Source: Felis catus
Lineage: Eukaryota
Length of the DNA: 64,000 bases
Direction: 5' to 3'
Assembly: GCF_018350175.1 (NCBI RefSeq)
Contig: NC_058379.1
Span: 29,326,001 to 29,390,000 of the forward strand
Numbering within the stretch: position 1 is the first letter of the stretch; every line of letters starts with the position of its first letter. The notes beneath the pieces were generated by a model. The model did no database searches. It was not told the DNA's origin and saw only the letters and a list, made by a program, of their open reading frames with translations. Positions 6,864 through 52,949 of this stretch are shown one piece after another. Both the position numbers and the translations under genes were made by a program.

Positions 6864-7505
6864 CAGCTTTCCCCTGCTATCAGGGGAGCATTCTGGGGCA
6901 CCCAGCTGGCTCATTTGGTGGAGCATGCAACCCTTGACCTCAAGGTTGTGAGTTCAAGCCCCATGTTGGGTGTAGAGATTACTTAAAAATAAGTCTTAAA
7001 ACACACACACTCACACACACAACTGGAGCATTCCTAGGAAACCTTTTATAAGCCAAAATGGTGTAAAACAAAGAAGCATTTAGTTACTATTAATTTATAT
7101 GGAAAAAATTGTTAGTGTTTCCAGACCCCAAAATTAACCTCTCAGGCTTGTCTGATACCTTAGGGACATGTATTGCGCACAGATAGACAAAAGAAGTCAA
7201 GGTAAAGCACAGATGTTTACAGATACAGTTCAAAGCTCTGACGGCTTGACTCTGAGATGCTGAGTGCAGTTCCTGAAGAAGGCACTTGTCGGCGCCACCA
7301 CTCTGGCTGCTCCAGGTGCAGTGCTCTCTATAAATGATTGCTGCAAAACAGATGCTGAATGCTATTTTCATTTTTTGCCTTTTTTGGTAAAAGTGAAAAT
7401 CCTCTTCAGATTTCTGTCTGTTGGCTAGCAAAACAGGTACTAACATAGGCCTTTCAAGAAAGCAAAGTGGCGTCACTCAAACTTCTGGAAAGTGGGGGAT
7501 ACCTG
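6864..7505. mobile_element. Tigger-like (Tc1/mariner) non-autonomous DNA transposon with a nested short SINE (about 6895-7020)
   Basis: Imperfect terminal inverted repeats cagctttcccctgctatc and gaaagtgggggatacctg, flanked by TA on both sides. The nested SINE is flanked by ggagcattc repeats. Confidence 0.6.
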
Positions 7506-7917: not shown

Positions 7918-10900
7918 AGGTCTGTCTGCCGGTAATTAGTGCTGAAAACTGGAAGCCAGCAACCAAAACCGACCAAGGTAAGGCATGCTTCTTGTGTCTT
8001 TCTCAGGTGGTGCTCTTCTGGGGATGCTGTTGTGGGGCAGGGGCCCCTCAGTCCTTTCTAATGCCATGTTTCACAGATTCCAGAGAAATCTTACCTGACC
8101 CAACTCCAGTGCATGCACAAGTATTGCTGAGGTTCCCGCCATTCCTCATGGGCAGGGCACATCTCAGTCAAACCATTGACCTGCACAGGTATTTGAGGAG
8201 GCCCTCCTGTGCTCGCAGACCAGTGGGGACACATGTAAATAGACCAGCCCAGCATTTGCTGCCTGTGCAGTTAGGGGGTGTAGGTACTGTCCCTGGAAGT
8301 TTTCATGAAGGATTGTGGGGCTACTTTGAGTGGGAAAGGGCGAATGGTGTTTAAGGTAACCTCATACAGCAGTTAGCACATGAACTCAGACTTGAAGGAG
8401 GGAGGGAGGTTGAAGAGGCCCTGCCAGGCTAAAAGAAGGGTGCAAATCAAAGCTACCTGGCAGACAGCACAATGCCAGTGGCTCAGAGTGGGTGGTGCTG
8501 GGGGGAAGGGGCATGGTCAAGGGCTGTGTGCCCAGATAAAAGCACAAAGTTGGCTTTAGTGGACCTGGAATTCCTTGCAATTGAATGTGGCCATGTGTCC
8601 AGGTACTTCTGTATGAACATACATGTGCTAATTTTTCTGGGAAAGGTACTTGATTCATTATTATGGTTGGCCTTCCTCTTGTCCCTTGGAAGTATCTAGA
8701 TTTTGTTATGGACTGTGTCTAGTTTTTATTTCTTAACTTCAGAACTTTCTTTTGAACTTTTAATCTCATATTGTTGGTGCGTAGCCACCTGAACCACTAT
8801 ACGATCTTTTCAGATTAAAGGGAGTGAATGAGGGTGGAAGGCCTCAGATGGTTTTTCAGACTGATATAGTAATTTTTCATTGGAACCCCTGGAAGATGGA
8901 GTTGAAATCCTTTTGCATGGGAAGTTGAGCCTCTCTTGTTTGAAATAATCATCATGAAAGGTGTCCATCAGGCTTTCACAGCTCAGTAGTAGAAAGGAAT
9001 GGGTCTAAATGTTGAGTCTGGGTAGAGAGATCTCCAGTGGACGTGACTTTCGATCATGGACGACGTGATGTTTATAAAAGCTGATGAAGTTGTTCTTAAG
9101 TGCACATACTTGGTTTTTGTTTTTGTTTTTCTATACAAATTCCTAGCTCTGTGTTGGAAGGCTGTAGCTGCATTTGTTCCGGAATGCCTTGTCAGCCTCT
9201 CACACAACTTCAGGAGCCCAAGTTGTGTGTATCTAACACCATGCCCTGGGAGGGGAAGCCCTTCCAGGCCTGGCTGCGCCACAGCTAAGACTGCCAGGCC
9301 TCAAAGTTACAAGATCTCCTCCCTTACCTGAGAAATGGAGTGGGACCAGGGGCATTGAGGCTTGTAGGAGATACAAACACAAGTAAAAGTGCTCCACACC
9401 TCTTCAGGGACTAGCTGCTCAGGATGGACAGATGTAGGCGCATAGCCAAAATGCTGGGCTCCCCTCCACCCCTAAATTAGATACCTGTCAGATACCTGAG
9501 ATAGGCTTTTCGTTCTTTTGGTACTTGCCGGTGGGCTTTTTTTTAATTTTTTTTTTTTTTAACATTTATTTATTTTTGAGAGACAGACACAGCATGAGTG
9601 GGGGAGGGGCAGAGAGAGAGAAGGAGACACAGAATCTGAAGCAGGCTGCAGGCTCTGAGCAAGCTGTCAGCACAGAGCCTGATGCGGGGCTCGAACCCAC
9701 AAACTGTGAGATCACGACCTGAGCCGAAGTCGGATGCTCAGCTGACTGAGCCACCCAGGCGCCCTTGCCGGCAGGCTTTTTAAGATAAAAATTTTGGTAC
9801 AGGGTACTGTTGTGTGTGAAGTGATGGGCAGACTTGCTATTTTGTTATTTGGGACAGTTAGGGTTTCTTTCTGGAAAATCGTTCTGTAGCTTGTCCTCAC
9901 ATACATCAGGCATGTTGTCCCTGGCACTTGCTGATATGCTTCCTTGTTTCTGCTGTCTATTATTATGTTACAAACCACCTTAAAACTTCATGACTTAAAA
10001 TAACAGCAATTTGGTATTTCTCATTCTGTAGATTGGCTGGGCTCAGCTGGATGGTTCTGTAGCTGGTCATCCCTGAGGTAACTCATGGCTGAGTATCTCT
10101 GTAATTCAGCATTCACAGCAACTTTACAGTACATAACTACTGCAAAACAAAAACAAAAACAAAAAACCCAAAACACCCAAAAACCCAAAAAAACTAGAAT
10201 CAGCTGTACCTGGAATGTCCAGAATAGGCAAATCTAGAGATAGAACATAGATTAGTGTTTGTCAGGGGTGGGATGAGGGGATTAGGAAGTGACTCTTTAT
10301 AAGAGTGGGTGTTTTTGGAATGATGAATATGTTCTGGAATGAAATAGTAGTGGTATTACACGGTTTTGTGTTATCTGCTGAAAACAACTTAATTTGTATA
10401 CTTTTAAGATTTTTTTTTAATGTTTGTATATTTTTGAGAGAGAGAGCATGAGCAGGGGAGGGGCAGAGAGAGAGAGGGAGACAGAGAATCGTGGGCCTTG
10501 AACTCACGAACCTTGAGATCATAACCTGAGTCGAAATTGGATGCTCAAACAGCTGAGCCACCCAGGTGCCCCTTGAGTTTTAATTAGAAAGTAGAGAAGC
10601 ATTAAAAATTGAGCAAAAGTATGGGGTGCCTGAATGGTTCAGTTGGTTAAGTGTCTGACTTCAGCTCAGGTCATGAACTCGCAGTTTCATGAGTTCCAGC
10701 TCCGTGTCGGGCTCTGTGCTGACAGCTCGGAGCCTGGAGCCTGCTTTGGATTGTGTTTCTGTCTCTCTGCCCCTTCCCCACTTCCACCCTGTCTCTTCTA
10801 AAAATAAATAAACATTTTAAAAAATTGAGCAAAAATAGCAGGAGAAAAGTCAAGAAACAAAGCAAAACTGTATCAAACAGAGAGGTAGTAGATGTTGACA

Positions 10901-33601: not shown

Positions 33602-35454
33602 ATGTGGAGCGCGGGCCGCGGCCGAGCTGCCGGACCGGCGCTTGTAGGGCTGCTGCTGACTCTCTTGGTGCCAGGCAGCGGTGCCGCCAAGACTGGCGCG
33701 GGACTCGTGACCTGCGGGTCGGTGCTGAAGCTGTTCAACACGCAACACAGGGTGCGGCTGCACTCGCACGATATCAAATACGGATCCGGTGCGCAGAGGC
33801 CCGTGAATGGGGCATCGTCAGGGGGCGGAGCCCGGGGCTGGGAGTCTGAAGGCTGGGTGGTCGTGGGGAGTCTGCAGAGCCACGGGTCTGGGGGTCACCA
33901 GGGTGCCTCACTGACCGCCTGGAGTTGTTGGGGGGCCCAGGGGGACAAGGACCAGCGGTTTTAAGGGGGTCGTTGGGATATTGGGAGCGAGGAGGGTCGT
34001 CCAGGAGCTGCAGGCTAAGGGACTTGAGAGTTCAGCCAGAGACCAAGGGCCAGGGATTGGGGCTGGGAGTGAGCCCTTGGGGTCCCAGGGTTGAGGTTGT
34101 CGGGAAAGTTTATGGTGTCCGAGTCAAGTATAGGGAGTTCAGAGGTTGACCGCGACCTCGCGGTGGGGTGGGGTGTCGCCCCACAGGCAGCGGCCAACAG
34201 TCGGTGACTGGTGTGGAGGCGTCTGACGACGCCAATAGCTACTGGCGGATCCGTGGCGGCTCGGAGGGCGGGTGCCCGCGTGGGTCCCCGGTGCGCTGCG
34301 GGCAGGCGGTTCGGCTCACGCACGTGCTCACCGGTAAGAACCTACACACGCACCACTTTCCGTCGCCGCTGTCCAATAACCAGGTGAGTGGCCGGCCGGG
34401 AGAGGTTACTTGTGTTGGGGGGGGGGGGGGTGCAGGGACAGAATCTAGACTCCTCTCAGTGACTCTGAGCCTGAGCACTACCTCTGCCGGCGACTGACAG
34501 GAAGAGAGATCAGGCTGGATAACTTATTCTCCTGGGGGTGAGTTGGACCCAGGAAGAGGATCCATAAGGCCTTTGGGGTGGGGAACATGAAACCCAGCAG
34601 GGGATGAGGAACTCAGGCTGGGTCAGGAAGGATGAGTAGGAGTCCTCTAGGCCACAGAGGGGAGACTAGCGGCTTTGCAGGCCTGGCGAAGAGCTTGTGC
34701 TCCAATGGAGTTCACTGGAACTTGGGGAGGGAGAGGTAGAGGGGTGGAGTTGGGGTGGGAGGGGTTTGTGGGGTTAGGGACTGAGTGCTTAGGGGACTTG
34801 TCAGAAGAAAAAGTATGAAATTGAGTGAGGAGTTGTTGGGCATCACGTTGAGTGAGTCTCAGAGAGGTTAGGAAGGAGAACATGGAGAGAGGAGGAGGCT
34901 TTAGCTATGTGGGGGCCTGTGATCACCGCACAGACAGATGGGGTAGGGTGGACGTGTATTTGAAGAGCCCTTGCTGGGGAGAGCCTACTGGGTGCTGGGA
35001 GTGGTGGTTGTAGTGTCCCATTTTGCAGCTATGGAAGCTAAGGCTCAGAAAGGTACAGGGAAGGACCCAAGGCCCAGTGTTCTGGGTGTGAGTGTTGGTG
35101 CCAGACAAGTGATCACAGGGGACTCTGTGCCTTCTGTGGTGAACACTGTCCATCTGCCCCCTGCACCCATAGGAGGTGAGCGCCTTTGGGGAAGACGGTG
35201 AGGGTGACGACCTGGACCTGTGGACCGTGCGCTGCTCAGGGCAGCACTGGGAGCGAGAGGCTGCCGTGCGCTTCCAGCACGTGGGCACCTCCGTGTTCCT
35301 GTCGGTTACCGGGGAGCAGTATGGGAGCCCCATCCGTGGGCAGCACGAAGTGCATGGTATGTCCAGTGCCAGTACACACAATACGTGGAAGGCCATGGAA
35401 GGCATCTTCATCAAACCCAGTGTGGATCCCTCTGCAGGTCACGATGAACTCTGA
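33602..35454 (+). CDS. SDF2L1: Stromal cell-derived factor 2-like 1 (MIR-domain ER chaperone cofactor), 3 exons, 221 aa
   Basis: Exons 33602-33788, 34187-34383 and 35173-35454 (666 nt, GT-AG). Signal peptide, VTCGSVLKL..RLHSHDIKYGSGSGQQSVTG, LHTHHFPSPLSNNQEVSAFG and C-terminal HDEL. ATTAAA at 35555-35560. Confidence 0.98.
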
Positions 35455-37232: not shown

Positions 37233-37619
37233 GCTGTGTGAGGGCCAGTGTATATCCTTTTGGGTCATCAGCCTCGGTTAGGCACTTAATGAATGCTTAT
37301 CTACAAAATGGACCCAAGTCGACACCCACTTCCCCATACCCCCCACAGATCCACAAGGCTCCCTGGGCTCCAGGACCGGATCTGTGAAGTTCAGACCTAA
37401 CCGGCTTGCTTCAGGCAAACCCGTTCTGGTCAAACAGGACGATTAGGTGGGGTTTGGTGGGGAGGGGAGCTACCCAGCCGGGAAACCCAATGCAGCTGAA
37501 TATCAAATCCGGGAGACACAGGGAGGGATGTGAGCACGCAAAACGAAGCAGCCCTGCTCCACAGCAGGCTAGACACAGGTTTCAGGGTTTCAGAATTCTT
37601 AGGATCGCAGCCCTCTTCC

Positions 37620-38500
37620 CAGCGAGCTCAGCTGCGCGGACGCCCCCCCCCCCCCCCCCCCCCCGCGGGCTTCTAAGCGCTCTCGCGGGCGCTGCTTCTA
37701 AACTCGCGGAGACTGGAGCCGAGAAAAGGCGGGTAAAATTCCTTTTGATAAGTTATGAATGAGGAGAAAGTGTTTGTAGTACTCATTGTTAAAACCACCG
37801 AGCCTGGGACTTGGCCCGCGCCCGGCCAATGCAGGCCCGGAGGCTATTTTGAAATCGCTCCGGTTTTAGCCAATAGGCGTGCGGGAAGAGAAGCCCCGCG
37901 TCGGCTCCGGCCAATGAGCGCGGCGTTATGCTAAGAAGCCGGGGGCCGAGCCCCGCCGACTGTCAGCGGGTTAAAGATGGAGCCGGTGAGCAAGAGGGCG
38001 CCACGAGGTGCGGGGTCGTTCTGATGGGTACGAGGGGAGCGAACAACCGCTAAGACCTTTCTCCTGCTAACCTTCCGCGTCCTGGCCTGGCCTGGTTCGA
38101 AAGGTGTGTCCCGCCGCGTGAGTAGCAGGGTCAGAGGTGGAGAGCACAGGCAGGGCGGCCCTACCCGGTGGGACTGTGCGGAGGGGCGCAGCCCGGATCC
38201 CTGGCGCCTTCTCCGCAGGGGACTCCAGCAGGGCGGGAAGCCCCCCCCCCCCCCCGTTCTTTTGCTTCGCTCTGGGCCTCCAGGCAGAGAATCTTTAGGA
38301 CTGAACACGGAGCGGAGTTGGGGACTAGGGGCCAGGGATGGGGGCGTAAGCCGACAGGGGCGCATGGATCGGAATGGGGCCACCCTCCTTCTCTTGCAGC
38401 CCTGGGTCGAGTGAGGGAGTAGGGTCATCGGGGTGTACCCACCCTCGCTCCGTGCACGAGTGGGCTTCGGACTGCGGTGGAGCGCGGGCCCCTCTCCTTT
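37620..38500 (+). promoter_or_regulatory. CpG-island promoter of the miR-301b/130b primary (host) transcript
   Basis: CpG island with CCAAT at 37826, 37870 and 37911, CHR-type TTTGAA at 37848-37853, E2F-like GCGGGAA near 37881, YY1-like AAGATGG at 37974, and candidate donors gtgagc (37986) and gtgcgg (38008). Confidence 0.75.
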
Positions 38501-38751
38501 GTGTGTTTACCCCCTCCCCCGTCCTCTCCCGCTCCTGGGTTGGAGCTACCCCTCAGTCTGGGGTTTCTCCCGCACCGCAGTGTGGAGAGTGCCTGGAGAA
38601 AGTCCCAGACCTTCTGACTATCTCCAGGACAGCAGCCCTGTTGAAATCCTCTTCTCCTCCCTGTGGTCTTGAACAGGGATTCTAGCCCCACCCACCCACG
38701 GTTGAGCTTCCCGCTCTGCACTTACTGGGGACCATGCGGGTCTCCCCTGCT

Positions 38752-38830
38752 GGCCCCAGCTGCTCTGACGAGGTTGCACTACTGTGCTTTGAGAAGCAGT
38801 GCAATGATATTGTCAAAGCATCTGGGACCA
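38752..38830 (+). ncRNA. MIR301B: microRNA miR-301b precursor
   Basis: 5p arm GCTCTGACGAGGTTGCACTACT starts at 38762; mature 3p CAGTGCAATGATATTGTCAAAGC at 38797-38819. The arms pair into a hairpin. Confidence 0.97.
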
Positions 38831-39078
38831 GCCTTGGGGACCCCCCTTCCCCACACCACAACCCTCCTCAGGCCGGGCCCCTTGGGCCTGCAGGCCCTCC
38901 CCTCCCCCCACCTCCCTCCCCAGCTCACTCCCTTCTCCATGGAAACTTGAGATCCTGGCCAGGCCTGGGCCTCTAGGGTCAGAGGGCACCCTTCCCCCAG
39001 GCCTCGGGGCCCCACCCCAGTGGGCCTGCATTCCAGATCTCAGATCCTCACTGACCACCACCAGGAGAGGCGCTGGCA

Positions 39079-39160
39079 GGCCTGCCTGACACTCTTTCCC
39101 TGTTGCACTACTGTGGGCCGCTGGGAAGCAGTGCAATGATGAAAGGGCATCGGTCAGGCC
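39079..39160 (+). ncRNA. MIR130B: microRNA miR-130b precursor
   Basis: 5p ACTCTTTCCCTGTTGCACTAC at 39091-39111; mature 3p CAGTGCAATGATGAAAGGGCAT at 39129-39150. About 330 nt from miR-301b, matching the known cluster. Confidence 0.97.
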
Positions 39161-41339
39161 CAGCCCACCACCCACAGTGCCTGAGGGGAGGGAGTTTTGC
39201 TGCCTCGCTCCACTTCCTAGCAGGAGAAGGTGTGGAACTGGGCTGGACCCTCCATCAGAGGATTAGGTGAGTGCAGAACTGGGGGATCATCCCACAAATT
39301 CTCCTTCTGGGATACTGCTGGACAGGAGCAGGGGCAGAGGCCCTGGGATCAGAAAAACTCTGGTTTGAAGAGGATCTTTCCACACCAACTCCCTGGGTAA
39401 GACTGGGGACTCCAGGTTTGGTCAGGGCTTTGTGGAGAAATGAAGATTCACTGTATTGCATGAAGGGTATGCCAGGGTCTGGCTCAGACCCAGCTCAACC
39501 TTGACCATGTGCAGATGAACTGCACCCAGGCCTCCCTGAGGGCTTGGGGAGGGTCAGGCTCTGGAGAGAACATTGTCCTGGGATCTTAGGAGCAGCACTA
39601 TCTGGGCTGGGTAGGTGGACTTGGGATATGCAGACCACAGGTGATGCCCATCAACCATGTCAGCTTGTTTTCTTACAGGGAGGTGTGCTGCCCTGAGACT
39701 GCAGAAGGGACCAAGAGATGCCTGGCATGCCCATCCTAACAGCTACAATTAAAGGGACTGTCAAAGAGCCAGGCCCCAGGCATGCTTGCAGGGCCGGCTC
39801 CACCATCAGGACCTGACACAATGCAAAAGGCTTTTCTGTGCCCAGTGACAGTTATTCAAGCCTGTCTCCTTTAAGAGGAGGCCCAGGTTTCCAGATGGGC
39901 CTTTGGGAATACCCCTCACTCCTGGCTGAGCACATCAAGATGCCAGCTTCACCCCACCCTGAGGGTAGAAGCCCGGGCATGCATGCTTGGAGGTGGCCAT
40001 CCTTCTGTGCAGATTCTGTGCCCACTGCCTGGAGACTCTCATACATCTGTCTCTCGCCCTTGCTGGGGGATGTTTTTTGAACTCAGGGTTCTGCTCAAAT
40101 GTTCTGTCCCAGCGGAAGCCTTTCCTGGGCTCCACAACATCCAATATTCCTCCAGCAGAGCATGTTAGATTGAAATTTCTCCTTGTGGCTGAAGTCCTCA
40201 TTAGACCCTGAGGGCAGGGACAATATCCCTTTTTATATCTCTCTTGGCAGTGCCTGGCACAGAGGAGGGGACTGATACAACTAAAAAAAATACAAATAAG
40301 TACATAAAGTGTAAAGTATTATTAGCAGAACATGGGGGAAGATTAATTAGGGGTCTACTCTACCCCTCAGAGGATGCTTCTGCTGTTTATAAAAAGGCAC
40401 ATACTACATATTTCAAAGTAAAGTCTCATTTTAAGTTACACAGGGTCAGGAAGCAGGATGAAGATTTGAACCCAGGTGTATCTAAGTCTATTTGTCCTCC
40501 TAGGCTAGAACATTTTTCCTCCTTGGTCATTTCCATCTTGCTCTCTGACCTCAAAGCAGGAGGAAGTGAGGGCCCGATGTTGGGGACAGCAGAGCCTAGA
40601 GGGTTGGTGGCTTGGTGGTGGGAGGTGAAAATTGTCTAGACTTATCAGGTACACTCCATGGATTGTTGGGGGTGAAGGGCGGTGGAGGTGATAGGAAGGA
40701 AGCAATCCAGGGTGCACCCCCCTGTTAGTGGTTGGGGTGGATGGTGGTGTCATCGCTGACCAAGTAGGAGAGGAGAAAAGAAGCAGGTTTGGGGTTGGGA
40801 GAGAAGAACCTATATGCCAATCTTATGTGTGCAGCATGAGATGCCCCCAAAACTTCCCCATCGGACACTTGGATGTGGTTCTGGAACTCAAGGAAGGTCT
40901 GAGCCTGAGATATAAGTTAGGGTTAGTTAAGTCAGCCCTGAGTTGGAACCTAAGAGTGGGCTAAATTGTCCAAGATGGTACCATGAAGATAGGACCTTCT
41001 TAAACCCATAAGGAGCAGCTAGATGCTGAAGAGGCAACATAAAGTATTGAGCAAAGTAACACAAAGTATTGAGTTATACAGGGGAAGAGAGAAGATAGAA
41101 GCTGGGGAGGGGTGGGTGGATTTGATGCTGGAGAGTAAATCAGGAGTGGAAGAGTGAAGTCTGGGGCAGATGAGTCGGGCTGAGTGAAGTCCTTGGGGTG
41201 TTGTCTACAGACCGCAAGGAGAGATGGTGAGCTGTCGGAACAAGGAGGAGTGAGGGCCTAAAAAAGAGTTTGGGTGCGGACCATGTTCTTCTCTGCGTGC
41301 CATGGCCCGCTCCCTCCTCAAGTCTTGCGGGACCCCATC

Positions 41340-42080
41340 AGGACCAGGGTTCCGCCGCGCGCGCGCGCGCGCGCGCGTGAGTGAGTGTTCGCCCCGTCGA
41401 TGGCGCCAGAGCGCATGCCCAGAGCAGCGGGCATTGTCACGTGCGTCCCCCTCGCGCGGATTGGCCCCCTGCTAGAGAGCTCCAGGGGGATTGGCTAGAA
41501 CGGTCGGGGCGGTGGCTGCGGCTCGCGGAGAGAGGCTGCGTAGGCTCGGAGGCTGTGGGAAACAGAGCAGGTAGGTCCCGGCGGCCCCCGTCCCTACTGG
41601 CCCCGGCCCGCCCTCGGCGACCGATCCCGGGCCCTCGGGAGCTGCCCCTCTCTCCTGGCCCGAGGCGGGTGGGAGTCGGCGCGCCTGGAGCCTCGGTGGC
41701 CCCGTCCCGACGACCGCTCCGCCCCCAGGCCACCCGAGCCAGCCCGCAGCGCCTCTAGGATGGAGGTCCTTGACGAGTTCGACAGCGAGTTCTCCCAGAG
41801 CGTGACCTTCTGCCAGCTCATCTCCGAGGAGGACTTCGAGAGGCAGGCGGCCACCTACACGGAGCGCGCTCTGCGCCGCCTGTTTCGCAGCATCGACCGC
41901 AACCCCGCGCTGGCCGAGAGGGTGGTGCGCAAGGGCAAGCTGGCCGAGTACGAGGGGCGCGGGCTCCTCTCCTTCCTCTGGGTGCGAGTCCGCCGGCGGG
42001 GCTTCGGGGGATGGAGCGGAGCTCTGAAGACTGGAGGTTTGGAGCGGGTGTGGGGAGGGCCGTCGGGCGTAGGTGGAGCT
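41340..42080 (+). promoter_or_regulatory. Second CpG island / proximal promoter of the uncharacterised gene
   Basis: (CG)11 at 41356-41377, NRF1-like GCGCATGC near 41411, E-box GTCACGTG at 41436-41443, two inverted CCAAT boxes (ATTGG at 41460 and 41490), donor CAG|gtaggt at 41571 and acceptor gcccccag| at 41728. Confidence 0.65.
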
Positions 42081-43177
42081 GCAGGGTACGGTCTTCCAGG
42101 AGGCCCAGCGTGGGGAGTGCTGTAGGCAGCTGTGTCACCTCTCCCCCTTCTTCCTGCCCTGCCTCTCCCCTTGTTGTAGGCGAAGTTTTTCTGTGCAGTC
42201 CAGGGGGAGCTGAATTGTTGCAACAGCATGGGTGCCCTGGAAATGCACCAGCGCCTGGAACAGCTGAAGAGGAGCATCCACCGCGTGCACCTCTACTCCC
42301 AGGGTGAGGGTCAATCTCTGCCAGCACACCTGACTTAGGATCCCTGATCCCTGATCCTGTGCTTGGTACGTTTTCGATTGTTTGGTGTTTATTTTTTGAG
42401 TCTTTATTATGAAAACGAACATAAACAAAACTGGAGACTGCAGTGAACACTCAGATACTGGTCTCCCTTCAGCTTCTGCAATTCTCCCCATCTTGCCATG
42501 CTTGCTTCATCCCCCTTTTCTTTTTCTGGAGCATTTTAGGGGAAATCTCAGACATCATTGTATTCTTCAATACTTTAGAATGCTTTTTTAGATATTAAAA
42601 AAAGACATTTTGTGGGGCGCCTGGGTGGCTCAGTTGAGTGTGTCTTCCGCCCAGGTCATGATGTCATAGCTCGTGGGGTTGAGCCCCAAGTCAGGCTCTG
42701 TGCTGACAGCTCAGAGCCTGGAGCCTGCTCTGGATTGCGTGTCTCCCTCTCTCTCTGCCCCTCCCCTGCTCATGCTCTGTCTCTCAAAAATGAGTAAACA
42801 TTTAAAATTTTTTTTAAAAAAGATATTTTGTAATCACAGTGTTACCCCGGACATAATTGACAACAGTTCCATAATATTAGCTGATACTTAGGTTGGTGTT
42901 CAGCCTCTGACTTTCCATTACTAGGATGGCTATATACTTTGTGTCCACATTAGGACATTTGTGAGAGTGAAATGGAAGGGGCCACTTTAATGACCACACA
43001 GGGATGGCAAATGAGTATAGTGGCCACATCTGTTGAAACCTCTTGAGATGGGATGCCCTCACTTTTGTCCCCCCTGCCATCAACTTGAAGAACTGCGTTG
43101 TCCTTTGGGGTAATCCACTTAATGGGTTTATATCTGTTGTTATGGCTCATTGGTGTTGTTTGTTTTATTCTCCTCTG

Positions 43178-43215
<38 letters not shown>

Positions 43216-46200
43216 TGTGTGTCTGTGTGTCTGTGTGTCTGTGTGTTTAAGTTTATTTATTTTGAGACAGAAACAGTGCACACAAGCAGGGAAGGGGCAG
43301 AGAGAAGGAAAGACAGACTCCTAAGCAGGCTCCCTGCTGTCAGCACAGAGCCCAATGCGGGGCTTGAACTCACAAACTGTGAGATATGACCTGAGCTGAG
43401 ATCAAGAGTCTGACTCTTAACCGACTGTGCCACCCAGGCGGCCCATTCTGCCTGTATGTCTTGGACAGTCGTTCTAAAGCCTTGATTAGATTTGGGTTCA
43501 GTTCTTTCAGTGCATTTGTCTTCAGTGATAGACTACCTAGCGATGGAGCTGCTTGCTTCATTATGTTAGGAAGCCTGGCTCACCTGGGGGTCCTACTTTC
43601 CATGATGGTAAGTGTGAGTGCTCCATGTCACCATTTCATCCCAACCCATGGCATATGTAGCTCCTACCATAGTCTCCCAAGGTAGTGTTGATCCTATTTA
43701 TCCTCATTTTATGAAAGAGAGCATAGAAGCCCAGGGAGGGTAGCCAACTATGTGACAACAATGTCACATAGTAAGTAGTAGAATCTGGAATTGAACTCAG
43801 GCTTGGGTTGCTCTGAGGCTCAGGCTCTTAGCTCTGGGTCAGTGCTCTTTGGTGGTGGTGATCATCATTCTAGATGAGCCGTTCTAATGGGTTGTATGAG
43901 GCACTTGTTCACACCCACTTTGCTGGTTTCCTATAACTCTGAACAGTAGAAATAGCCAGACTTGTTGAATATAGGAGGAAAACCTAATACAGAAAGAGGA
44001 GAGGGGGTAGGCCTGAGGGTCCTGCTTCTCAAAGATTCCCTCCCTGAGCCCACCTCTGTAAGACCTTGTACATATGGGTTTCCTTACAGAAAAAGGAGCC
44101 TTTGCACACCCTTAGGATGGCCCTGGGGCTGGGTGTAGTTGGTGAGCTTACTGTCCAGAGCCTGGATACCTCATGAAGGTGCTGGCAGACTCAGGAGCTT
44201 TCCACAGTGCTTGGGCATAGGTGGCAGACTGACTTGCCTAGGGCAAGCCAAGCCCTCGTTGGTGGTGATACTCTGTCACTTCCCCTGAAATTCTGGCCTT
44301 GGAGTCAGATGGTTGGGTTGTGGATCCTGCCTGTGCCTTGTACACTTGGAGCTTACAGTTGTATCTGTAAGAGAGACAAAAATACCTTTTCCCCATGGGA
44401 TAGTTATGGGCTGATGAGATGATACATGTTGGTGCCTGTCAACAGTGGCTCTAGGTATTATCATGTGGTCCCTTTTGGGGGAGGAACCTTGTGAAGACCC
44501 TATACTACTGTTGGGCTCCCACTCTATCCTGTTCTGGCTGTGGGGTAGGCACTCACTGGTCCCTTTTGTCACAGATGCCAAGAAGAAGAGAAGAAAGCCA
44601 AAACTGAAGAAACCAGAACCCATCCTTTTGCAAGACCGGTCCACCTCCCCATGCCTGCCACCAACCGTGCTGCCACCTCCACCACTGCCATCCACTGCTA
44701 CTACCGTGGCCTCCATGGTGGCCTCATCACCCTCTGTCTACACTATGCCTAGGGTCTTTGGCCCCTTCCCTCCTCTGCCCAGCAAGTCGGTCAGTGAGCG
44801 CATCCCCCACTCGTGTGGTCCCAGGAAGGGCAGCCTGTGCCCTTCGCTCAGAACCACCCCAGTGGTTCTCCTGGGCCCACAGCAGTGGCTCTCAGAACTT
44901 TGTTTTTAAGTGGCAGAACTCTATCTGCAGGCACTATCTTGGGTGGAATGGTGACGGATAAAGCAGATGAAAAGGGGTCTGCTCTTGTTGAAGGGTTGGA
45001 GGCACAGAGTTTTACCTGCTGTGCTTCAGCTGAGTGAGGCAATCCCCAAAACACTGGGCAGAATTCTGGGGTGCCCAAAGGACAGGTGGAGAACCATGGC
45101 TGCCCCCCAATGTCTCCAGCCCCACACCTGCCTCGCCTCGTGGGTGGTGTTCTTGCCACTCTCTAGGTGCCTCTGCAGTGTGCCTTCCTATCTGCCTGTC
45201 CCTGCTAATCTCCCCTTATCCCGCACTCTCACTCCAGGCAGACCCCCATCCTCTGTCAGTTCCCAGCCCCCATCACATTCTCTGTTACCCTAACACCAAG
45301 CTCGAGGTGGGCACTGAGGATGACCCTGACGTATTTGTCAAATGAAGGACAGTCATGTACTTCCCCTGGTTCCTGTATAAGGTGTTTTTTTTCTCAGTGA
45401 GGCCCCCAAACTTGTCCTAAGATTTTGTTTCTATACCGCAGATAGAGAAGTTGGAAGTTACAAGGTCCGAAGTGAAATTAAACTGGGCTGGCCTGTCATC
45501 GAACCCAAAGAGGTGGAATTTAAACTTGGGGCAAATGAAAAAGGAGTGTTTTGGGTAGCTTGTGTGCCAACACTCGATTGCCATTTCTTCCCTACCTTGT
45601 TAATCCTCACAATAATCCTGAGGGGTTGTTATTCCCATTTAATAGGGAAGGAATTGAGGCTCGGGTCTGCTCTGTGTATAGACATGTGCAATGAGGCTGG
45701 GAAGGGCCTGCCTGGGAGGAGCCCAGAGCTGATGTTACCCTCTCCGCTCTGTCTTGCAGCCACATGGTTGATCTGACCCCCTTGGTCCTCAACCCCGGAG
45801 GCTTCCATTTCTCGTACTTGGCTGGAAACAGTGCACATCAGCTTCATTGCCCTGGCTACCCCTGGTAAGCATGCCTCTGACACCATCCTGGCTTGCCTGG
45901 CTTGATGGCATCATGGCAGTGTACATGAGGGCCAGAAAAACGTTCTGTATGATAGTCCTTTGCGTTTCATGAAAAGACCCTAATGTAATAGGGTGCTGGA
46001 AAAGTCACTCCCCCTTCCTAGTGTTTGTAATGGCAAGAATCAGAAACAAGCAGCTCAGAGACCCACTAGAAACAATTCTGTCAACTGTGGGCAGCCCTAA
46101 GGTTTATAGACATGTGTCTTGCAAAGCAGGGATTTACTGAATATGGTTGTTGGTTTGTTTTTTAGTCGCCTGTTTTTTCCACTTAGGGTGTTGTTAAGTA

Positions 46201-49200: not shown

Positions 49201-51480
49201 AAATGTGGTCTATCCATATAATAGAATGTTGAAATAAGTGAGATAAGCCAGAACAAAAGGACAGGTTATTGTCTGGTTCCCATTACATGAAGTATCTAGA
49301 GTAGGCAGAATTCTAAAGACAAAGTAGGTGAGAAGTTACCAGGGCCTGGGAGAAGGAGATGAGTTGTTGCTTAATTGGTACAGTTTCTGTTTGGGATGAT
49401 GAAAAAGTCCTGGAGATAGATAATGATGATGGTCACCACAACACTGTGAATGTGTATAATGCCACTGAATGGTACACATAGAAATGGTTAAAATGGTAAA
49501 TTTTGTGCATATTTTACTACAATAAAAAAAAAGGAAAAACTCTAGCACCACTAAGCTGTCACCCCCAGTTCTTCTCTCCCCCATCCCGAGGCAACCACTA
49601 ACATTTCTCTGTGGATTTGCCTATTCTGGACATTTCATATAAATGAAACCATACAATAACATGGTCTCTGGTGACTGGCTGCTTTCACTTAGGATAACGT
49701 TTACAAGGTTCATCCATGTTCTAGCATGTGTCAGTTCTGAATTTCCTGNNNNNNNNNNNNNNNNNNNNNNNNNNNNNNNNNNNNNNNNNNNNNNNNNNNN
49801 NNNNNNNNNNNNNNNNNNNNNNNNNNNNNNNNNNNNNNNNNNNNNNNNNNNNNNNNNNNNNNNNNNNNNNNNNNNNNNNNNNNNNNNNNNNNNNNNNNNN
49901 NNNNNNNNNNNNNNNGATGAACCTATATTGACACTTCAGCGTCACCCAAAAGTCCATAGTTTATACTGGGGTTCCTTTTTGGTGGTGTACATTCTATGGG
50001 TTGACTTTTTTTTATGGTTGAACAATATTATTCCACTGTGTAGATATGCCACATTTTATCTGTCAGTCATCAGTTGATGGGCATTTGGGTTGTTTCCATT
50101 TTTGGCTCTTATGAATAATACTGTTGTGAACATTTCTGTGCAAGTTTCTGTGAGGACATAGTTTTCAGTTTTCTTGGGCACACTCTTTATAAATATTTTT
50201 TTTATTTTTGAGAAAGATAAGAGTGTGAGCAGTGGAGGCACAGAGAGAGAGGGAGAGTCTCACGCAGGCTCCGTGTAGAGTCCAAAGTGGGGCTTGAACT
50301 CACAAAACTGTGAGGTCATGACCTGAGCCGAAATCAAGAGTTAGACGTTTAACTGGCTGAGCCACCCAGGCACCCCTTCTTTGGTATAGTCTTAAAAGTG
50401 GAATTGCTGGGTCATATGGTAAATATATTTTGAAGGACTGCCAAAGACACAAGTCTGTTATCAGATGTAGGATCTGCAAAATATTTCCTCATATTATGTG
50501 GGTTATCTTCTCTCTTTCTCTGGTCTTTTTGGATCACCAAAGTTTAAGGTTAGTCTTTTGAGAGGCAGTTTGTCAAAATATCAGGAGCCATGGACGTTCT
50601 CATATTCTTTGCTCTGGTATTTTCAATTCTGGGAGAGTTTCAATTCAAGGAGATGATTAAGGGAAAGAAAAAAGCGACTGTGTACAAAAGTGTTTATGGC
50701 AGTGTAAAAGGAGAAAAAATGGAAACAGCTTAAATGTGCATTCACAGAATTATGGAATATTATGCAGACATAAAATTATGAACATGCTTAAACCTGATTA
50801 TGTAGATTTATGAATTATGTGTAAGTGGAAACAATAAGCTATCCAGTCAGATCATCCTACCTCCTGGTAGGATGGAAGAGTAGGAAGGTGACTGACTGCC
50901 GAGTGATGGAGAAGGGGTTGCCGGCAATCACTTGTGCAGTGTTGTTATGATGCAAAATGTAGAAGCAAGGCATTGTTGGCATCATCAGATCCTCACAGAA
51001 TTGTGGGGCCATGCACCAGGGCTGGACCATCATCAGAACTTAAACAGCTGCAGAATGGTCTGCTGCATGGTGTCCATGGTTCCTTTAGCCATTCTTTGAT
51101 GGATGTTTGATTGTTTCCAGGCTTTCATAATCACCAACATTGCTGTGATGAACAGCCTGGAACAAAACATCCATGGGAGAGCATTATGGAAGTAGAAATG
51201 TATTGAAGGCCATCCCACAGCCTTAAGTTTTGTCATGCGTACTTCTGATGGCTCTGTGTGCCGGTATCCCACCTCATGGACATGTGTTGGCTGTCTCCTG
51301 CACAGGACCTTGGCCTGTAGTGGCTCCCCCAACACCAAGGAGACACCATCCCCTCCTGTGAAGACTTCCATCTTCACCCCGCCTGTCTTGCTCAAGTTCC
51401 AGCCTGTGCCAAGACCCAAAGATGACTCTGAGAATGACCCTAGCAGCACGGAATCTGTGCCCCACAAGAGGGGTCCGTAA
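41760..51480 (+). CDS. Uncharacterised 326-aa protein (7 coding exons); probable miR-130b/301b host-gene product with a NEMP-like N-terminal motif
   Basis: Exons 41760-41981, 42180-42303, 44575-44789, 45238-45306, 45442-45512, 45760-45864 and 51306-51480. All introns are GT-AG with pyrimidine tracts; phases 0,1,0,0,2,2 join into a stop-free 981-nt ORF. Start context aggATGg; AATAAA at 51513-51518. The internal exon 3-5 boundaries are the least certain. Confidence 0.82.
42614..43443. mobile_element. Two Can-SINEs (about 42614-42820 +, 43246-43443 -)
   Basis: SINE bodies; the second has a (GT)n-expanded tail. Confidence 0.85.
43180..43245. repeat. (GT)n / (GTGTCT)n microsatellite
   Basis: Visible compound repeat. 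Confidence 0.9.
46290..50470. mobile_element. Nested L1 fragments and at least 7 Can-SINEs filling the last intron of the uncharacterised gene
   Basis: L1 3' signatures in both orientations (e.g. aaattgggcagaggacttgaatagacatttc at 48523; tgtgaatgtgtataatgccactgaatggtacac near 49445). SINEs near 47280, 47545, 47781, 47917, 48110, 48687 and 50190. Confidence 0.85.
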
Positions 51481-52949
51481 CCTCTTTCCTACAGACCACG
51501 GCTAGATCAATGAATAAAGTTCCCATGGAGGTGCCTTACTTGTGCTGGGCTCCCTAAAGGCTGTGCAGTCCCTTGGGCTTCGTCCTGCTGGAAGAGTTTG
51601 TCAGAATAGTGCAAGCCAGAGGCCCTTTAGTCTGAGCCTGCATACAGTAATTGTTCAGGTCAGTGCTACTGTGAAGTCCCCTTGCTTGTTCTCTAGCTTG
51701 GGAATGTAGCCATGGCACTTTGAAAGAGAAATGAGTGAGGAGACAGCACTGCCCTTCTCTACAGTGACTCTGTGGCTCCTTTGAGCTTCACTTGACCTCA
51801 CTGAATTGCAGTTCCATCATTTTTTCCTACACCTGGGCTCTAAACTCAAGCCTTATCTGGGTGCAGGTTTAGAAACAGTGATCTGTTCCCTCCCTGGAGG
51901 AAAATAAGCTGGCATGTTAGTTTCCAACTTGGCACCTCCCTAAGGAATTTCAGAGACGTGACTCTTGTTGTTGCTTTACACACCAGCCTTAGAGTCAAAC
52001 CTGCATCTGAGACATGAGCCCTCACAAAATGCGTAATGACTGCTGGACATTAGCACATACTTGTTGAACCCTTGTGTATGCTCCACACCTTGCTTGGGAC
52101 TGGAGATAATAAACCAAGCAGTTGGTGTCCCTGCTCTTAAGGAGCTTACATCCTATCCTCCTCTGTGTGTGTGTGTGTGTGACTGTATGTGTAACCAGTG
52201 CATCCAATTAATAGGGTTATAAATTGTGATAAGCCCTAAGGAAGCTGAGTTGGACATGTATGCAGTGGGTGGTCAGGGAAGATCTCTCTGAGGTGACATT
52301 TATGTTGAAACTTAGAAAAACATAAGGAGGCAGCTATGAAATGAGAAAGGGCAAGGACCACTGGCTCTGGGTGACTAGATAGCGGTACAGTTGTGGCAAG
52401 GGGAGCCTATGCGGAGGGGGAGGGAGGGTGGGGGGGGGGTGGAGAATTCTGTTTTGAGCACACATGTTAAATTTGAGATCAATGGTACCTAAAATAGAGG
52501 TCAGGAATCTGGAGTGCTGGCCATTTGATGATGTGAGTCAAGAGATATGAGTGGTATTTAAAGCCACAAGCCTGGGAAAGATCACCAGGTGCTTGTGTGT
52601 AGACGGAGGCCCGGGGCTTAGGCTGGGGCACACAAACATAGTGATCTGGCCGCGGGAAGGGTCCGTAAGAGAGATGAGTGAGGGCTTTGGACTCTCGGGC
52701 TTAATGGCTACTTGCCCCTAAGCCTCCCAGGAGAGGGCTGGAGGTGGTGGGGACTGAAAGGGAGAACGGGTAGACAGCGAATGTGGACGTAGGTTTGGAG
52801 ACGTCTGCCGTGGAAGGAAGCAGAGATGAGACAGAGGCTGGTGAGACTTAAGGTGGACTTTAAAAAAAATCTGAGAAACCAGGTCAAACCAGGGCAGGCT
52901 TGAGCGGGGGGATGGAAAGGAGAAAAGGTCTAGAGAGAGCCTTCTCTGT

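Follow-up and report, generated by a model that had tools for sequence, protein, structure and literature searches.

Two microRNA hairpins, miR-301b and miR-130b, lie upstream of a protein-coding gene in the cat genome, which raises the question of whether microRNAs and protein are made from one RNA or from separate promoters. The original prediction was that a distal promoter makes a transcript carrying both microRNAs in intron 1 together with the protein mRNA, while a proximal promoter makes the protein without the microRNAs, uncoupling the two outputs. We analysed a window of 64,000 nucleotides of Felis catus DNA (NC_058379.1, positions 29,326,001 to 29,390,000 of the forward strand), numbered here from its first base. 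RNA evidence came from 4 of the 24 listed runs and covers 39300-42400: three contig sets that we guess to be RNA (X2, X5 and X6) and a raw poly(A) run (X22) with 14 reads there. Donors upstream of that stretch were deduced from loose contig ends landing in it. Contigs show presence and not absence, rare forms drop out of them, and the source tissues of the runs are not stated.

The microRNA hairpins and the Todr1 gene

Both hairpins exceed the Rfam gathering thresholds, which places them in the mir-130/301 precursor family, and both lie on the + strand between two CpG islands, as had been proposed. The "b" of miR-301b is taken from synteny and from papers.

38751-38832, + strand: pre-miR-301b (Rfam RF02061, mir-301; 85.1 bits against a gathering threshold of 56)
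39080-39160, + strand: pre-miR-130b (Rfam RF00258, mir-130; 45.8 bits against a gathering threshold of 40.6)

Judged by its sequence, the locus corresponds in the cat family to mouse Todr1 (2610318N02Rik; LOC70458), the known host gene of miR-301b/130b. The protein is encoded by six exons.

41729-41981, + strand: first coding exon, ATG at 41760 (RNA and homology)
42180-42303, + strand: coding exon (junctions in X5 and X6; loose ends leading to 44575 in all three contig runs)
44575-44789, + strand: coding exon (RNA loose ends and homology)
45442-45512, + strand: coding exon (homology)
45760-45864, + strand: coding exon (homology)
51306-51518, + strand: terminal exon (last base of the stop codon at 51480; AATAAA at 51513)

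Joined, these exons give 303 amino acids with no internal stop, 300 of which are identical in lynx (P0003). The 235 residues identical to mouse P0113 (303 versus 305 amino acids) identify the two as orthologues. A search with the ATG-41760 exon returned 166 homologues, including mouse LOC70458 and a "RIKEN cDNA 2610318N02" entry; the named ones among the 120 matches listed are all mammalian, and 78 of these 120 begin at ATG 41760, the conserved start. The genome search for Todr1 gave 1 match, so the gene has one copy in this genome, and a retrocopy that might have recorded the mRNA leader was ruled out. Five exon pieces and two full proteins gave no Pfam match above the cut-off.

An SDF2L1-type MIR-domain exon lies upstream of the gene at 34189-34383. 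The gene at about 53227 (~53.2 kb) we presume to be PPIL2, from its N-terminus and the synteny in PMC8784585; Todr1 thus falls between SDF2L1 and the presumed PPIL2. The mouse gene, which lies between Sdf2l1 and Ppil2, was named Todr1 in PMC8784585, and that paper found no human homologue, a recognisable TODR1 frame being absent in human. A review places miR-130b in an intron of mouse 2610318N02Rik (PMC6914872), and mouse Todr1 expression is reported to climb toward the tubule lumen (PMC12832764).

Galago, lemurs and colugo keep an intact Todr1 (P0018, P0048, P0063, P0087 and P0098), and no monkey or ape Todr1 protein appears among the matches listed (120 of 166); the gene may have been lost in the simian lineage. 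Within the coding region, X6 contains joints from 41981 to 42180 and also from 42036 to 42180. The alternative donor at 42037 adds 55 nt (41982-42036) and shifts the frame, leading to a stop in the 44575 exon. Its depth in X6 is 26.7 versus 32 for the coding junction, it is the only one listed in X5, and it is a possible decay-coupled switch. Retention of intron 41982-42179 leads to a stop at 42123. X6 also splices a second donor near 42365 (42304-42365) onto the 44575 exon. Elsewhere in the window, weak Rfam tRNA matches at 6900-6972 and 9676-9760 are probably tRNA-derived carnivore SINEs.

Two CpG islands and their motifs

Both CpG islands of the original prediction are real, with a CpG o/e of about 0.84 versus 0.08 between them. 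They had been thought to end in splice donors; instead, they extend about 250-550 bp beyond these.

37488-38242, + strand: distal CpG island (GC 0.62, CpG o/e 0.84), with a weaker tail at 38278-38544
37826-37915, + strand: three CCAAT boxes in the distal island, at 37826, 37870 and 37911 (within 90 bp; background in the window 0.16 per 100 bp)
41164-42150, + strand: proximal CpG island (GC 0.69, CpG o/e 0.83)
41411-41512: proximal island motifs, presumed NRF1-like (41411), E-box (41438), inverted CCAAT (41460 and 41490) and GC box (41507)

The distal CCAAT boxes are presumably NF-Y sites. The promoter-type motifs at 41411-41512 are conserved, and the proximal island begins 600 bp upstream of the ATG. 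An ATG at 41415, within the presumed NRF1-like site, is the start of short peptides that are alike in many mammals; it would be an upstream ORF if transcription started before 41415.

The distal island is likely to be the promoter of the pri-miR-301b/130b host. The human start site 711 bp upstream of mir-301b (PMC5930504) corresponds to about 38.04 kb here.

Splicing of the distal RNA

A simple weight matrix, applied to the 209 GTs in 37500-41759, gave rank 1 to donor 39267, rank 2 to 41571, rank 3 to 38104, rank 4 to 37986 and rank 11 to 38008. Donor 38104 is used in all three contig runs and donor 39267 is used too, while acceptors 39326 (X5, X6) and 39679 (X2, X6) are each used in two of the three.

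37990-38103, + strand: 3′ portion of the first distal exon, followed by donor GT 38104 (loose ends at 39324 and 39677)
39238-39266, + strand: exon end (donor GT at 39267), joined to 39679
39326-39396, + strand: non-coding internal exon of the distal RNA (acceptor in X5 and X6; joint from 39396 to 39679 in X6)
39679-41037, + strand: long exon of the distal RNA, from which coverage goes on to 41570 and beyond

At 39324 (X5, X6), the loose end is identical to the sequence immediately preceding GT 38104, which occurs once in the window. The one at 39677 (X2, X6) is mixed; it was reproduced letter for letter (agreement 0.63) and, among eight AG/GT candidates, fits only donors 38104 and 39267. The exon ending at 39266 may be either small, starting from 39221 or 39224, or long with the hairpins inside. 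Since the junctions run from 38103 to 39326 and to 39679, the distal RNA removes both hairpins as intron, and the two form an intronic cluster. The lemur model P0063 uses a donor at 39153, at the 3′ base of pre-miR-130b; the GT is present in cat, and splicing there would compete with cropping of pre-miR-130b.

Further downstream, coverage is unbroken over 39679-41037 and from 41117 onward in X2, X5 and X6. X5 contig 7 is continuous over 39324-42037 with the distal splice at its 5′ end, and X2 and X5 retain intron 41571-41728. Coverage in X2 and X5 begins at splice acceptors and therefore reflects spliced RNA; DNA contamination as the source of their long contigs was ruled out on this ground. 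Weak poly(A) signals occur at 39748, 40388 and 40417; no canonical AATAAA was found in 39300-41400, and no loose end leaves 39679-41570 for a downstream exon in the RNA data over 39300-42400. Ahead of the Todr1 start stand 32 ATGs when counted from 39679 (39679-41759) and 40 when counted from 39326; given these leading ATGs and the retained downstream introns, the distal RNA is likely a non-coding host.

The donors proposed for the distal exon, 37986 and 38008, exist as GTs but provide no junctions into 39300-42400 in any of the four runs. The bat and reindeer gene models read straight through both, and a leader from either would carry upstream ATGs at 37914, 37928 and 37977. Splicing from 37985 or 38007 to 41729, which was to yield a protein mRNA, likewise found no counterpart: no upstream end other than 41570 reaches 41729 in the four runs, which contain no loose ends at 41729 or 41410 over 39300-42400. 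The supposed single acceptor is accompanied by those at 39326 and 39679. Two first exons converging on a common acceptor were thus not seen, only 41570 being joined to 41729 in these runs, from whose contigs rare forms can be dropped.

A likely proximal first exon

41466-41570, + strand: likely first exon of the proximal mRNA (estimated start about 41.47-41.49 kb; followed by donor GT 41571)

The junction predicted from 41570 to 41729 is seen in X6 at a depth of 27.6 (listed in one of three contig runs, one of four runs overall) and is implied by 12 of the 43 5′-extended orthologue proteins described below. Its acceptor lies where it was expected, 31 nt before the ATG at 41760, with the exon beginning at 41729. 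Leaving 41570 in X6 are 27.6 spliced and 16.9 unspliced, a depth of 44.5 compared with 8.1 upstream. Depth in this run is 8-13 upstream of the proximal exon and 72-165 on the coding exons, with a step of about 5-5.5-fold near 41485 (~41.49 kb), a rough figure that uses the contig mean of 13.4. In X2, depth is nearly flat, going from 7.6 to 10.3. Judged from bin depths, about 13 of the 14 X22 reads lie from about 41.47 kb on and about one at 40.1 kb, all on the strand expected for + RNA. The ratio of coding to distal depth lies at about 1-3 for X2 and X5 and at about 6-14 for X6 (contig means, tissues not stated).

A proximal leader starting at or after 41466 has zero upstream ATGs. The motifs, their conservation and the depth step make the proximal island the likely promoter of the Todr1 protein mRNA; poly(A) 3′ bias could mimic the step in X6. 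No position at which many molecules start emerged from the runs over 39300-42400. The unspliced leader of the proximal mRNA, searched for hairpins of the kind that Drosha cuts, showed no unusual structure (z 0.25).

Gene models in other mammals

Spurious N-terminal extensions occur in 43 of the 121 orthologue proteins and reveal their 5′ exons; real coding sequence was ruled out for these extensions, as the frames differ by species and meet stops in this window. Twenty-five of the 43 align to 41380-41570, and 12 of those 25 arrive at the start codon after at most 19 residues, as only the spliced path would allow (panda, seals, camel, pig, whale, rabbit, bats and pangolin). Many other extended models continue through intron 41571-41728; they are mostly contigs and may be DNA.

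Distal sequence is contained in 3 of the 43 extended models. Reindeer P0034 joins a donor at ~38118 directly to the equivalent of the 41729 acceptor, fruit bat P0058 goes from ~38118 into the proximal exon, which it enters near 41345 judging from P0122, and on to 41729, and lemur P0063 reads through miR-130b to ~39152 and enters at 41410, so that the proximal exon is internal in the bat and lemur models. The placement of all these junctions is derived from protein alignments of annotated gene models. A second homologue search with the bat extension gave 2 matches among 554 candidates, one of them new and with the distal part absent. One RNA giving both the hairpins and a translatable mRNA is implied by 3 of 43 orthologue models and was not seen in the four cat runs over 39300-42400. 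Going by these models, a distal-to-coding isoform may exist, rarely or in other species, and not with donors 37986 or 38008. The Mastomys model P0095, which joins SDF2L1 exon 2 (34384) to the 41729 acceptor, is a possible read-through chimera.

A two-promoter model and its alternatives

We think it probable that the distal promoter serves a non-coding microRNA host and the proximal promoter the Todr1 protein mRNA, via 41570-41729. RNA from the upstream island would splice from 38103 over both hairpins onto 39326 and 39679, with the Microprocessor presumably cropping the hairpins out of the intron. The remainder of the distal RNA, long and often keeping its introns, would continue across the proximal island and would make a poor message, with 32-40 upstream ATGs, the stop at 42123 if the intron is kept and a premature stop via donor 42037. 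A second promoter near 41.49 kb would make a short-leader Todr1 mRNA through 41570-41729, and with two promoters the levels of microRNA and protein could change independently. The uncoupling originally predicted is therefore likely, and more complete than proposed; what the cat data do not support is the dual-product distal RNA, which appears to be non-coding in this species.

The bat, reindeer and lemur models, which join distal sequence to coding exons, and the review that puts mouse miR-130b in a 2610318N02Rik intron (PMC6914872) would suit a distal promoter that also yields a meaningful translatable Todr1 mRNA, with exon 1 (38104/38118) spliced to 41729 directly or via the proximal exon. 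We consider this unlikely, as no such joint or loose end occurs in the four cat runs over 39300-42400, the supporting models are annotations placed from protein alignments, and the second search with the bat extension added one protein without the distal part. Less likely again is a single promoter, with the proximal island intragenic and 41570 simply marking where a long or internal exon of the distal RNAs stops. The unbroken X5 contig 7 (39324-42037), the nearly flat X2 depth, the internal use of the proximal exon in the bat and lemur models and the unique upstream promoter reported for human (PMC5930504) are consistent with it, but the X6 depth step, the X22 read distribution, the conserved motifs at 41411-41512 and an island starting 600 bp upstream of the ATG argue for a second start, and the observed distal leaders are hardly translatable, yet the frame is intact across mammals.

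Least probable, in our estimate, are fully separate units, in which the distal RNAs stop short of the proximal island or are spliced to PPIL2, and contigs merge overlapping transcripts. Continuous coverage of 39679-41037 and from 41117 in X2, X5 and X6 argues against this, as do the lack of AATAAA in 39300-41400 and of any loose end from 39679-41570 to a downstream exon within the 39300-42400 RNA data. On the other side, a contig spanning two genes does not prove one transcript, weak poly(A) signals are present at 39748, 40388 and 40417, human molnc-301b, a polyadenylated RNA mapped by RACE, ends after 2,460 nt (PMC10667839), and human annotation has assigned the cluster to PPIL2 (PMC8232258 and PMC4351690, one of which notes "Multiple TSS").

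With a non-coding distal host and a proximal protein promoter, miR-130b/301b levels should track the distal promoter and Todr1 protein the proximal one. Because separate promoters would drive microRNA and protein, gene-level "host gene" counts would be a poor proxy for either product. The layout also suggests how human could lose TODR1 yet keep the microRNAs.

Drosha and Todr1

Drosha cleavage of Todr1 is restated in PMC6223193, bioRxiv 2023.03.30.535007 and PMC8008949. It is conceivable, but in our view doubtful, that promoter choice sets the sensitivity of Todr1 to Drosha. Distal RNAs cut at miR-301b/130b would give no protein, and at low Drosha they would survive and splice into the coding exons, a route possible according to the bat, reindeer and lemur models; the proximal promoter would escape cutting, for example in spermatids. 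If so, part of the published "Drosha cleaves Todr1 mRNA" effect in stem cells would be pri-miRNA read-through. In favour of this, data on Drosha-deficient mouse ES cells give a gene logFC of 1.80 (FDR 1.4e-23) and a logFC of 7.4 for the hairpin loci, the direction being inferred in both cases (PMC10954719). Against it, Table S2 of the same paper gives 16:-:17117508 (mm10) as a site of Drosha-dependent cleavage, which lies ~6.6 kb downstream from Mir130b and probably inside the Todr1 body. That table contains no hairpin site, the Mir130b and Mir301b rows standing in Table S5. Such a cut fits direct mRNA cleavage whichever promoter is used. What the locus adds is a connection to the Drosha-Todr1 phenotype of stem cells that can be tested.

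Comparison with known host-transcript systems

The cat locus resembles mouse Todr1/2610318N02Rik in its position between Sdf2l1 and Ppil2 and its intronic miR-130b. A miRNA-skipping Todr1 promoter downstream of the hairpins was not found described in the literature consulted. The human host is described as a 7-exon non-coding processed transcript with one upstream promoter (711 bp before mir-301b; PMC5930504). Together with molnc-301b and TCONS_l2_00017631, this transcript is like the cat host, as we read it, in having a CpG-island promoter, mir-301b in the first intron and no coding function. Human differs in being described with one promoter and without a recognisable TODR1 frame; moreover, human miR-130b spans a splice site (PMC4561498), whereas the cat junctions seen, as read from flanking RNA in 39300-42400, leave both hairpins wholly intronic.

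Promoter-based uncoupling of microRNAs is treated in a review (PMC13686912), and alternative promoters were reported for at least 25 of 103 human intergenic miRNA units (Chang 2015; PMC4561498), Table S4 of which marks no multiple promoters for the miR-130b/301b cluster. The two-promoter layout is thus of an ordinary, common and published kind. As in MIR100HG, miR-30a/30c-2 and MIRLET7BHG (Chang 2015), a downstream promoter would skip upstream hairpins and uncouple the outputs; genes of the MIR100HG type uncouple other miRNAs in this way, whereas the cat locus would uncouple a protein.
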